A stretch of 64,000 bases of DNA from contig JBDRRP010000087.1 of the NCBI GenBank assembly GCA_043825735.1, forward strand, positions 1 to 64,000. Direction: 5' to 3'. The stretch comes from Pseudomonadota bacterium (GTDB taxonomy: Bacteria > Desulfobacterota > Desulfobacteria > Desulfobacterales > JBDRRP01). Shown piece after piece: positions 2,761 through 63,720 of this stretch. A model generated the notes under the pieces. The model was not told the origin of the DNA. It searched no databases and saw only the letters and a list, made by a program, of their open reading frames with translations. A program made the translations under genes and the position numbers. Within the stretch, counting starts at the first letter, position 1. Every line of letters begins with the position of its first letter.

Positions 2761-3023
2761 TCGAATAGTTCCCAAGGGGGTGGTTCGGTTGCCAATGCTA
2801 AGGGGTTTGAAACGACCTGTCAAATCGAAACGGAGGTGTGTCAGGGCAGTTATATGCGTAACGGTTCCTGACGGCGTTCCGTGCAACGTGTGAGGTCAGT
2901 GTCTTTCTCAAATGCATCAATCTGTACTATCGGTGCATCGATTCCGATCAGCGAAATTCAGGTTGATTTAGCAGATTGAAGGTATATACTGGACTATACC
3001 TAAACTGTGATGGGAGAAACATC

Positions 3024-3254
3024 ATGGAATCCACTGCCAAGTTATTTAAAAACGGCCGATCACAGGCGGTGAGGCTGCCGAAAGCCTTCCGTTTCAAAGG
3101 TACTGAAGTCAGGATCCGAAAAGAAGGGGCGCGGGTTATTTTGGAGCCCATGGATGACACCCACTGGCCCGAGGGTTTTTGGGAACTCTTTGGAGCTGAC
3201 CCCGATTTCGAAACGCCGAAAGCGCTGCCCCCTGGTGACATCAACCTGGATTAG
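3024..3254 (+). CDS. vapB: VapB antitoxin (AbrB/MazE fold)
   Basis: TAKLFKNGRSQAVRLPKAFRF motif; RBS ggag upstream; directly precedes a PIN toxin. Confidence 0.92.
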   Translation: MESTAKLFKNGRSQAVRLPKAFRFKGTEVRIRKEGARVILEPMDDTHWPEGFWELFGADPDFETPKALPPGDINLD

Positions 3255-3260
3255 TTAGTT

Positions 3261-3671
3261 ATGATTGGCGGCGGCGTGTACCTCCTCGATACAAATATCG
3301 TCAGCTACTGGATGCGCGGCGACGCGGCTGTAATTGCTCGAATTAGAAGCCACAGCCCATCCGAGATGGCCATGTCGGCGATAACCTTTGCTGAAATTCT
3401 GTACGGGATCGAAAAATCGCCCGTCAGAAAAAATGAACGAACCCGAAAAATTACCGAAATCGCTTCCTTACTCAGTCTTTATCCGTTTGAAGAACAGGCA
3501 GCCCGCCATTATGCCGTCATTCGGTCCCGCCTCGAAACAGAAGGATTGATCATCGGTGAAAGGGATCTGCAGATCGCCGCCATTGCCAGTGCCAATGCCT
3601 TTTCCCTCGTTACGCATAACACGAGGGAGTTTTCCCGAATTCCGGATCTGGCCGTTGAGGATTGGGCGTAG
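3261..3671 (+). CDS. vapC: VapC PIN-domain toxin
   Basis: YLLDTN, E..YG, DLQIAA, LVTHNTREF..IPDL..EDW motifs. Confidence 0.95.
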   Translation: MIGGGVYLLDTNIVSYWMRGDAAVIARIRSHSPSEMAMSAITFAEILYGIEKSPVRKNERTRKITEIASLLSLYPFEEQAARHYAVIRSRLETEGLIIGERDLQIAAIASANAFSLVTHNTREFSRIPDLAVEDWA

Positions 3672-3714
3672 CAGCAGTTGACTTTTCGGGTCATTCCGCA
3701 TAATCGGTAGTCAA

Positions 3715-4042
3715 CGCCAGGTGGCCCCAGTTGGTGTCCATCCATAAACGGCATCTTTTGGCCCAGAACTGCGTTATCGCACTTTTCGAAAACCTCGAAA
3801 TAGCGCTGCTATTCCTCGGGTTTCGAAAATGCTATAGCCTTGCTCTGAACCAAAATCTACCCTTTCTGGATAGACACCCGTTAAAAGGGAATCCGGTGAG
3901 AATCCGGAGCGGGACCGCCGCTGTGACCCTGCCCGATTATTTGATAAATCGGGAACCCGGTCGGCAATTGATGGCCACTGTTCGCCGTAGGCGAATGGGA
4001 AGGCCGCCGGCAGGGCAGGGGAGCCAGAAGACCTGCCTGGTG
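3715..4042 (+). ncRNA. Cobalamin (AdoCbl) riboswitch, interrupted by a MITE
   Basis: Conserved elements: ccaggtg (3717), ttaaaagggaatccggtgagaatccggagcggg..ccgccgctgtga, gccactg..gggaaggc, gagccagaagacctgcc; P1 cgccaggt pairs with gcctggtg; upstream of the cob operon. Confidence 0.95.
3732..3879. mobile_element. ~147-bp MITE-like palindromic element (family M, copy 1)
   Basis: TIR ggtgtccatccataaa / tttctggatagacacc, internal aatagc-gct-gctatt hairpin; close inverted copy at 63574-63720. Confidence 0.85.
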
Positions 4043-4099
4043 AATTATATCCGCTCCGGCACGCTCATCTGTCGCAACGGGAGGAATGAAAACGGCGAT

Positions 4100-4139
4100 T
4101 CCTCGAAGGCCCTGGTGTGGGCGTTCGAGGATTTTTTTT
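4100..4139 (+). terminator. Intrinsic terminator (riboswitch expression platform)
   Basis: tcctcgaaggccc-tggtgt-gggcgttcgagga stem followed by T8, ~60 nt after the aptamer. Confidence 0.85.
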
Positions 4140-4163
4140 GTTGGTTCAAGAAAAGTCGGGGGC

Positions 4164-4439
4164 TTTCGCAAAGCCGCCAAGATAGCAAAATTAATGCAAT
4201 TAATATTGATGGAACTGAAAAAAGTCTTCGCAACTATAGCTGCCATTCCGAGGAGCGGTCTCCGCTCTTCGATCCACGCACCCAGGGCCTGCGACAAGGA
4301 AGCCCAATAAAATGAAATCTTATGTGATTTTGTACCCAGTGGCGATCCCTCACTACGCTCGGGATGACATCGAAAGACTTTTACGAGGCTGTCAATACAA
4401 ATAACGTTTCCTTGGCGTCCTTGGCGCCTTGGCGAGAAA
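4164..4439. repeat. Nested palindromic repeat: CGCAAAG-core arms enclosing a shell element enclosing a REP doublet
   Basis: Arms 4164-4190 / 4411-4439; shell ttga..aaaaagtc 4206-4226 / gacttttacgag..tcaa 4376-4395; inner tgccattccgaggagc 4241 .. gatccctcactacgctcgggatgaca 4369. Confidence 0.75.
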
Positions 4440-4477
4440 ATCCTGTTTTACGGGTTTGCCTTTTTGGGGAGGTCGAT

Positions 4478-5857
4478 ATCAAAGGCTTTGTCGTGGCGGG
4501 CACCGGCAGCGGTGTCGGTAAAACCACCATTTCACTGGGGCTCATGGCGGCGCTAAAGCGCCGGGGGCTTTCGGTGGCGCCGTTCAAGGTGGGGCCCGAT
4601 TTCATCGATCCGGGCCATCACAGCCGGGTGTGCGGGGTTGCCAGCTGCAACCTGGACGGGTGGATGCTGAGTGAAGCCTTCAACCGCAGGACCTTTTTTA
4701 AAAATGCCGCCGATGCCGATGTGGCCGTGGTCGAAGGAGTGATGGGGCTCTTTGACGGCTATGACGGGAAAAGCGAGGCCGGCAGCACCGCCCAGATGGC
4801 CAAATGGCTGGGACTGCCGGTGGTTCTGGCGGTGAACGCACGGAGCATGGCCCGCAGCGCTGCGGCCCTGGTGCAAGGATTTGAGCGTTTTGACCCGGAT
4901 CTCAAATTTGCCGGCGTGGTGTTCAATCAGGTGGGCAGCGACACGCATGTGAGATACCTGCGGGAGGCCCTGGACGGGAACGCGGCCATGCCCTGTCTGG
5001 GCGGAATTGCCCGAAGCGCCGAGATTGCCATGCCCGAGCGGCACCTGGGACTGGTGACGGCCGATGATCATCCGCTCAGCACCGATGGCGTGAACCGCCT
5101 GGCCGATCTCATCGAAAATAGCCTGGATGTGGACGCGCTCTTGGCCGGATTGCCGGAATTACCGATGGCGGCCGCAGCGCGGTCGTTGACGACCCGCGAC
5201 CAACGGGCAGTGGTGGCCGTGGCCCGGGATGCGGCATTTTGTTTTTATTACCCAGAGAATATCGAACTGCTGGCGGCCGCCGGCGCCCGGATCGCGTATT
5301 TTTCGCCGCTCACAGATTCGGCTTTGCCGAAGGACAGTAGTGGGATTTATCTGGGCGGCGGATACCCCGAGCTCCATGCGCAGGCGCTGGCGGAAAACAG
5401 TGCCATGCGAACCGCCGTGGCGGACGCGTCAGCAGTCGGGATGCCCGTTTACGCTGAGTGCGGCGGATTCATGTATCTATGCCGGGAGTTGACGGATACC
5501 GAAGGGCGGCGCCACCCCATGTGCGGCTGCTTTCCATTTGAGGCACGCATGAGCGGCCGGCTCAGATCCCTGGGCTATCGTGAGGTTACCTGCACGACCG
5601 ACACCCTGGTGGGCGCGGCCGGGACGGTGATCCGGGGGCACGAATTTCATTATTCCGAAGCTGACACGCCGCCTGGGGTGTGGGCCAGCGATTACCGGCT
5701 GTCAGCACGCTCGGGCAACCATGTGACCAACGAAGGCTACCGGGTGGCGAACACCCTCGGCAGCTACGTACACCTGCATTTCGGCAGCCGGCCGGATGCG
5801 GCCGAAACATTTGTCAGCCGCTGTGAAGCATGGCAGCGGCAAGGAACCATTTCATGA
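4478..5857 (+). CDS. cbiA: Cobyrinate a,c-diamide synthase
   Basis: GSGVGKTT, FKVGPDFIDP, VEGVMGLFDG, PERHLGL, YAECGG, GHEFHYS; probable start is ATC after GGAGGT (ORF-track ATG 4364 lies in a repeat). Confidence 0.95.
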   Translation: MKGFVVAGTGSGVGKTTISLGLMAALKRRGLSVAPFKVGPDFIDPGHHSRVCGVASCNLDGWMLSEAFNRRTFFKNAADADVAVVEGVMGLFDGYDGKSEAGSTAQMAKWLGLPVVLAVNARSMARSAAALVQGFERFDPDLKFAGVVFNQVGSDTHVRYLREALDGNAAMPCLGGIARSAEIAMPERHLGLVTADDHPLSTDGVNRLADLIENSLDVDALLAGLPELPMAAAARSLTTRDQRAVVAVARDAAFCFYYPENIELLAAAGARIAYFSPLTDSALPKDSSGIYLGGGYPELHAQALAENSAMRTAVADASAVGMPVYAECGGFMYLCRELTDTEGRRHPMCGCFPFEARMSGRLRSLGYREVTCTTDTLVGAAGTVIRGHEFHYSEADTPPGVWASDYRLSARSGNHVTNEGYRVANTLGSYVHLHFGSRPDAAETFVSRCEAWQRQGTIS

Positions 5858-63573: not shown

Positions 63574-63720
63574 TAGTGTCCATCCAGAAATGGTAGATTT
63601 TGGTTCAGAGCAAGGCTTGAGCATTTTCGAAACCGGAGGAATAGCCTGCTATTTCGAGGATTTCGAAAAATGCGAAAACGCAGCTCTGGGCCAAAAGATG
63701 CCGTTTATGGATGGACACTA
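63574..63720. mobile_element. ~147-bp MITE-like element (family M, complete copy)
   Basis: TIR tagtgtccatccagaaa / tttatggatggacacta (16 of 17 match); internal aatagc-ct-gctatt hairpin. Confidence 0.88.

Follow-up and report, generated by a model that had tools for sequence, protein, structure and literature searches.

A mobile palindrome lies between the closing-helix strands of a Cbl-I-type cobalamin riboswitch in a cbiA leader

Correia, ERIC and RUP are prokaryotic MITEs that are transcribed as RNA hairpins. The accessible text on such elements (PMC10969869) presents them as non-coding, intergenic and co-transcribed sequences that are present in dozens of copies and carry terminal inverted repeats and a target duplication. 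As for riboswitches, according to the accessible text of Barrick and Breaker 2007 (PMC2258182) many of them tolerate long non-conserved stem-loops at specific sites, the so-called 'variable insertions'. Transposons are not mentioned in the main text of that paper, where the string 'transpos' occurs 0 times. For the cobalamin riboswitches, the accessible text of PMC7367189 defines the Cbl-I class by a large P6 extension (P7–P11) together with a loop-stem-loop, P2, between P1 and P3. The same text describes the P2 module as peripheral and without a major role in Cbl-I riboswitches, and it has all cobalamin riboswitches signal via an L5–L13 kissing loop, so that switching uses L5–L13 and not P1. 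The nearest published case of a small repeat in such a leader is the pneumococcal trp leader, in which, according to the accessible text of Croucher et al. 2011 (PMC3049150), a BOX element lies between two T-box riboswitches and regulation is apparently retained. In full-text literature searches, no description of a MITE within the aptamer of a riboswitch was found.

The locus described here lies in the window, by which we mean the whole stretch of 64,000 nucleotides that was analysed, and brings these known elements together in one leader. A palindromic MITE of 146 nt, called family M in the following (3733–3878, + strand), sits inside a cobalamin aptamer, where it separates the P1 5′ strand from the UUAAAAGGGAA core. 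With the Cbl-I riboswitch of Thermoanaerobacter tengcongensis (PDB 4GMA), as far as the accessible text of PMC7367189 describes it, the riboswitch shares the core, the B12 box, the P6 extension, P1, the cbi genes downstream and a terminator-type platform, but here the P2 module holds a transposable hairpin of 146 nt, the P1 strands are 312 nt apart and the P1 5′ strand is wrongly placed by the Rfam model. Like the variable insertions, as the accessible part of PMC2258182 presents them, the insert is a long non-conserved stem-loop at a permissive site that should leave the core undisturbed, and unlike them it is an identifiable multi-copy mobile element with a target duplication. The BOX element, again judged from the accessible text of PMC3049150, is likewise a small repeat that is co-transcribed within a riboswitch-controlled leader, but it is located between two complete T boxes, whereas the MITE is inside one aptamer and parts the strands of the helix that closes it. 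Family M agrees with the MITEs of PMC10969869, within the accessible text, in all of the properties listed above; it differs from known MITEs in being spread in Desulfobacterales (at least 115 stretches) and in that the draft genome yielded no autonomous partner that shares its ends. The riboswitch class, the tolerance for insertions and the type of mobile element are each known, and it is their combination that is little documented in print.

In an Rfam covariance-model scan we obtained a match to Cobalamin (RF00174) at 3850–4054 on the + strand with 72.9 bits against a gathering threshold of 31.5 bits, and this was the sole above-threshold Rfam match in the window. When the scan was limited to 3879–4060 the score was 75.5 bits for a 5′-truncated match at 3879–4054 that covers model positions 38–189. 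The Rfam model pushes the 5′ strand of P1 into the end of the repeat, and without the repeat the aptamer score rises by 2.6 bits. The segment 3879–4054 (+ strand) comprises the RF00174 aptamer from the 3′ edge of P2 to its 3′ end, including P3–P6, the P6 extension and the B12 box. The core words AAGGGAA, GCCACUG and GGGAAGG and the B12 box AGCCAGAAGACCUGCC are all present in the cmscan alignments and every highly conserved position of the aptamer matches the Rfam model. The core TTAAAAGGGAA starts at 3881, exactly where the initial annotation of this DNA had placed it. Of the two features that characterize Cbl-I, the P6 extension is aligned over 3925–4018 and the P2 loop-stem-loop position is taken up by a linker, the MITE hairpin and a second linker, and the genes downstream of the riboswitch (cbiA, cbiC, methyltransferases and cbiD) are cobalamin genes. 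Among the eight riboswitches ranked by Rfam score in the genome the one in the window is only the seventh, a low rank that results from the misplaced P1, as the core alone reaches 75.5 bits and its conserved positions are intact. Further downstream a candidate hairpin for the L5–L13 kissing loop with the expression platform could be read from the sequence at 4081–4104, with a loop that contains ACGG opposite the ACCG of L5, a word that is also found in the same-family comparison genome (G002).

The 3′ strand of P1 is GCCUGGUG at 4035–4042 (+ strand), as indicated by the Rfam alignment, the duplex energy and the pair probabilities, and its partner is CGCCAGGU at 3715–3722 (+ strand), for which duplex energy, pair probabilities and homology speak. 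Together they form eight contiguous pairs, six of them Watson–Crick and two G–U, which agrees with the pairing of 3715–3723 and 4035–4042 that had been proposed initially. The duplex has an energy of −14.4 kcal/mol and makes 3715–3722 the top partner of 4035–4042 anywhere in 3600–3880, other partners within this range being no better than −9.5 kcal/mol. This strand lies about 140 nt upstream of the one chosen by the Rfam model. The alternative 5′ strand inside the MITE (3858–3870) showed only 7 of 12 standard pairs with at most two of them consecutive in a hand count on the cmscan alignment, and was ruled out by its duplex energy of −4.7 kcal/mol as compared to −14.4 kcal/mol and by the loss of 2.6 bits when it is included. 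A better P1 strand within 3860–3880 was one of the findings that the initial annotation had named as contradicting its reading, and none exists there, the strand in the repeat lowering the score from 75.5 to 72.9 bits. Taken alone, the duplex energy is unusual to a moderate degree only, since it was equalled by 49 out of 2000 shuffled versions of the intergenic stretch of 61 nt. What settles the choice is homology, because CCAGGTG is found at the P1 5′ position also in the orthologous cbiA leader of G002 and in the closest paralog from the genome of the window, and in both of them the core follows within 11–13 nt; 3715–3722 is therefore taken as the real 5′ strand. The register of the helix is that of the Rfam consensus, with GGU facing GCC and abutting the P3 strand CCU. 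A P1 helix that closes the aptamer is present across the insertion, and in partition-function folds of 3711–4047 its eight pairs reached probabilities of 0.96–1.0, which were equal with the MITE and with the MITE removed in silico.

The P1 5′ strand is followed by the linker GGCCCCAGUU (3723–3732, + strand), an L2A-like remnant of the P2 module, the last four nucleotides of which, AGTT (3729–3732), represent the left target duplication. The right target-site duplication, CGTT (3879–3882, + strand), matches the left copy in three of four bases. From this duplication the insertion point can be deduced to lie between GUU and AAAAGGGAA (GUU^AAAA), and the right copy restores the conserved GUU that precedes AAAAGGGAA beside the core. 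Downstream of the MITE the alignment resumes at model position 38, i.e. with the final two positions in the 3′ strand of P2, and by hand count the GGU that ends the P1 5′ strand of the model is at about position 21, upstream of the MITE. The insert is therefore located within the P2 module, more precisely at its 3′ edge and not within a P2 hairpin. Before the insertion the gap between P1 and UUAAAAGGGAA had a length of about 8 nt (GGCCCC, A or C, and G), which cannot form a hairpin. In the initial annotation the MITE was placed in the P2 position and was thought to replace P2; its place between P1 and the core stands, but as P2 was already vestigial with about 8 nt the MITE adds a stem rather than replacing one. 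The P2 lengths that we read from the alignments are 11 nt in the G002 ortholog and about 7 to 56 nt in the seven paralogs from the genome of the window. The longest belongs to the paralog L032 (C83), which at 1669–1724 on the minus strand contains a GC-rich P2 module of 56 nt with −29.4 kcal/mol and can be regarded as a 'variable insertion' that arose naturally in the same place. The possibility that this 56-nt module is itself a repeat was rejected, its sequence being unique.

The element is a palindrome over its whole length with the termini GGTGTCCATCCA and TGGATAGACACC in the riboswitch copy, while the terminal inverted repeats of the family consensus read AGTGTCCATCCA and TGGATGGACACT. 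It had been described as a complete element of 147 bp at 3732–3879; the element is indeed there, but its real span is 3733–3878, which corresponds to 146 nt. The inverted twin that had been noticed at 63574–63720 was found at 63575–63719 on the minus strand with 92% identity. Using BLAST against the genome of the window we identified 106 MITE loci, 32 of them full-length (144–147 nt), and a separate genome search listed 51 matches in the same genome. Many of the genome-wide partial matches cover only the right half (query 66–145) or the left third of the MITE, which suggests subfamilies or chimeras that share parts. The target-site duplication of the family has a length of 4 bp, with 7 of the 32 full-length copies matching in four of four and 6 in three of four bases, and in a control with the right flank shifted by 1–3 bases only 0–2 of 32 copies reached three of four or better. 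The preferred target is approximately ANTT followed by A, and the upstream flank of the riboswitch copy (3600–3732) is unique in the genome. Small, dispersed and without coding capacity, present in multiple copies and bounded by terminal inverted repeats and a target duplication, the element is a MITE, as had been proposed.

The RNA of the MITE folds autonomously with −54.5 kcal/mol (z −7.47), a stability that was reached in 0 of 200 shuffles, and thereby shows the long hairpin that had been expected from the palindrome. Among the other full-length copies 20 of 31 fold more stably than the riboswitch copy. The latter differs at 13 positions from the consensus of 17 other aligned copies and 9 of these changes are private, a number well above the 0–3 of the twelve most similar copies, while four more diverged ones carry 5–18. 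These nine changes, in one copy and without an outgroup, suggest that the insertion is probably not recent, and yet no decay is visible in the aptamer. In the riboswitch copy two pairs of the hairpin have compensating changes in both strands, three have been lost and the terminal pair has changed from A–U to G–C, and other diverged copies show one to nine compensated pairs. No signal of selection on the stem of the riboswitch copy was obtained from the hairpin energies in comparison to the 31 copies or from the compensatory changes among the aligned copies.

Beyond this genome, public genomes contain the end motif of the MITE in at least 115 stretches, almost all of which are titled as Desulfobacterales, Desulfobacteraceae or Desulfosarcina MAGs, with Desulfosarcina widdelii as one of the listed carriers; the family is hence an old one with a wide distribution in the order. 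None of 80 copies from other genomes adjoins a cobalamin core in a regular-expression search whose positive control, the site in the window, was recovered, which makes the MITE beside a cobalamin core a one-off. As to an autonomous partner IS, no recurrent pair of 12-nt ends at a distance of 600–4000 nt was found in the draft genome, a weak result since IS copies are often unassembled.

For comparison we used one other genome of the same genus and one other genome of the same family. The latter, G002, possesses an orthologous cbiA leader (L059 1104–1293, 93.2 bits) that is without the MITE at the site, at family-level distance, and reads CTCCAGGTG, followed by a P2 of 11 nt and then TTAATATGGGAA. 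Right after the terminator of this leader (L059, C399, about 1384–1436) there is a short palindrome with the related ends GGTGCCCATCC and GGGATGGGCAC, so relatives of the MITE family have also targeted that leader. No ortholog is present in the other genome, G001, whose CbiA is 41% identical and for which no riboswitch was found. The CbiA relatives from metagenomes are at most about 60–70% identical, and a cobalamin riboswitch was detected in 2 of the 20 loci scanned (out of 80), in both cases on the opposite strand. Neither an empty-site allele nor an orthologous filled site was found in the comparison genomes, the metagenome CbiA loci and the contigs of four sequencing runs.

The contigs of the four runs also include none that joins 3732 to 3879 or 3883, where the uncovered parts carry no weight. 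In run X1, the DNA run in which the locus is best represented, the listed contigs break off at 3709 and begin again at 3881, without one that bridges the MITE. The two breaks (3709/3710 and 3880/3881) are located outside the repeat and not where 31-mers become shared; they could reflect a second allele in the sample or the way in which the contigs were built or filtered. Run X3, an RNA library, contains a contig of 151 nt that matches 3726–3841 with one other letter and a contig of 165 nt that spans 3804–3968 across the right junction with ten other letters. Both are a weak hint that the riboswitch copy of the MITE is transcribed, or is present in a relative, as DNA can occur in RNA libraries. 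The RNA runs X21 and X22 from the same study as X1 contain next to none of the words of the locus.

Upstream of the P1 5′ strand a promoter-like site was identified by eye, consisting of TTGACT (3678–3683), a spacer of 15 nt and CATAAT (3699–3704) on the + strand, and its −35 word TTGACTTT is aligned to an identical one in the orthologous G002 leader. A consensus scanner gave 0 promoter-like sites for both strands of 3600–4450, but it demands a spacer of 16–18 nt, misses the hand-read site with its 15 nt and is thus insensitive. Directly upstream we found an ORF for a MazE/AbrB-type antitoxin (2976–3254) and one for a PIN-domain toxin (3261–3671), and the putative riboswitch promoter is within the 44 nt that separate the PIN stop codon and P1.

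On the aptamer's other side, the expression platform (4043–4099, + strand) offers two candidate alternative pairings, namely 4050–4056 with 4079–4085, taken from the MFE fold of 4043–4147, and 4081–4087 with 4098–4104, found by eye. A chain of alternative pairings that would compete with the terminator is plausible, and the platform word GGAGGA..GAAAACGG is common to the G002 ortholog. The intrinsic terminator at 4100–4139 (+ strand), recognized from sequence and fold, consists of a stem at 4100–4131 and a U8 run at 4132–4139, and it is intact, in agreement with the initial annotation. A simple terminator scanner missed it because its loop exceeds the stated limit of 3–8 nt, and the terminator-like sites reported by this scanner in 3600–4450 are on the minus strand only. 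No U run follows the MITE hairpin on the + strand. The MFE folds of the full leader favour some non-native pairings.

The first gene of the cbi operon encodes a cobyrinate a,c-diamide synthase of the cbiA/cobB type (4478–5857, + strand), as identified by Pfam and homology, and is followed by cbiC, methyltransferases and cbiD. Full-length Pfam matches to CbiA, GATase_3, CbiC, TP_methylase and CbiD were obtained, and the operon is intact. The interval between the terminator and cbiA is occupied by a second repeat (4151–4458, + strand) in two halves, 4151–4207 and 4399–4458, which are split by an insert of 191 nt (4208–4398). At many other loci, e.g. at C4:59821–59937, these halves directly adjoin each other, and the 191-nt insert is low-copy with three partial matches elsewhere in the genome. 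Together with the MITE the cbiA leader carries three nested or serial insertions, and given the two between the terminator and cbiA it appears to be generally loosely constrained. The cbiA ORF opens at an ATG at 4364 inside the 191-nt insert and is homologous to the G002 ortholog from its residue 40 onwards. At the position where the ortholog has GGAG and ATG, we observed GGGGAGG (4466–4472), 5 nt and ATC (4478). The protein may have either a repeat-derived N-terminal extension of 39 amino acids or a non-ATG start.

The leader contains the insertion at an exactly defined site, with the complementarity of P1 preserved across it and with core, terminator and operon intact. As to the consequences for the switch, we are inclined to favour a tolerated and essentially neutral insertion, at a peripheral and permissive position, into an OFF switch that would have retained its control by the ligand. 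According to this model the MITE would have inserted into the cbiA leader inside the Cbl-I-type riboswitch, between the P1 5′ strand and UUAAAAGGGAA. A transcript starting at about 3711 from the promoter-like site 3678–3704 would cover the P1 5′ strand and the whole MITE, the RNA of which would fold locally into its own hairpin and thereby bring the P1 5′ strand beside the core, so that P1 could close once 4035–4042 is made. The aptamer would still bind adenosylcobalamin and favour the terminator 4100–4139, i.e. it would act as a transcriptional OFF switch, and the insertion would be a 'variable insertion' and not an adaptation. A long near-perfect RNA duplex is also a possible target of double-strand-specific RNases, and a rather unlikely but serious alternative is that the insertion killed the switch, either with P1 forming too slowly during transcription or with the leader being processed at the duplex. 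What we see would then be a recent pseudo-riboswitch, with the cbi genes expressed constitutively or from some other site of the MITE-rich leader. Such a dead riboswitch could last, because with a switch that is blind to its ligand the operon would probably stay on, a state that can be survived. The seventh rank of eight by Rfam score would fit to such a loss, but it is due to the misplaced P1, with a core of 75.5 bits and intact conserved positions. The two further insertions in the leader, the uncertain start of cbiA with an ATG inside an insert and the MITE stem without a sign of selection point in the same direction; against them stand the P1 complementarity, which is perfect over eight pairs despite nine private changes in the MITE, the intact terminator, and the peripheral role of P2 in Cbl-I together with switching via L5–L13 and not P1, as given in the accessible text of PMC7367189.

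The opposite outcome, in which the MITE hairpin was co-opted as the P2 stem of a loop-stem-loop with GGCCCCAGUU as L2A and CGUUAAAA as L2B, or retunes the switch as an element for processing or pausing, is in our view very unlikely. In its favour, the layout after the insertion is the loop-stem-loop described for Cbl-I in the accessible text of PMC7367189, the preceding gap of about 8 nt between P1 and the core was too short for a hairpin, and the terminal pair of the riboswitch copy changed from A–U to G–C. However, terminal and internal compensated pairs are found in other copies too, the stability of the hairpin is unremarkable, P2 has no major role in Cbl-I according to the same accessible text, and 0 of 80 copies from other genomes are located beside a cobalamin core. 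Similarly doubtful, if slightly less so, is the broader idea that the hairpin is now the working stem of a restored L2A–P2–L2B and that MITE capture is a regular route to variable insertions or peripheral riboswitch stems. That the arrangement is an assembly artefact, for which a metagenome assembler would have threaded a repeat copy between contiguous flanks, is hardly credible. The genome is a draft of 160 contigs and the listed X1 contigs stop at 3709 and restart at 3881 with none bridging the MITE, but the nine private substitutions show that the copy is not a duplicate of another locus, the target duplication is typical for the family, the X3 contigs match 3726–3841 and span 3804–3968 across the right junction, and no contig joins 3732 to 3879 or 3883.

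In the tolerated insertion that we favour, the cbiA leader represents a natural experiment on the modularity of an aptamer, in which a foreign hairpin of 146 nt parts the strands of the closing helix and the defining parts of the sensor are intact. Similar cases are likely under-reported, because the standard covariance model mis-assigns P1 and underscores split aptamers. If the switch works, mobile hairpins would be absorbable at the permissive helices of structured RNAs, and the locus would provide a concrete origin for the 'variable insertions' of riboswitches.
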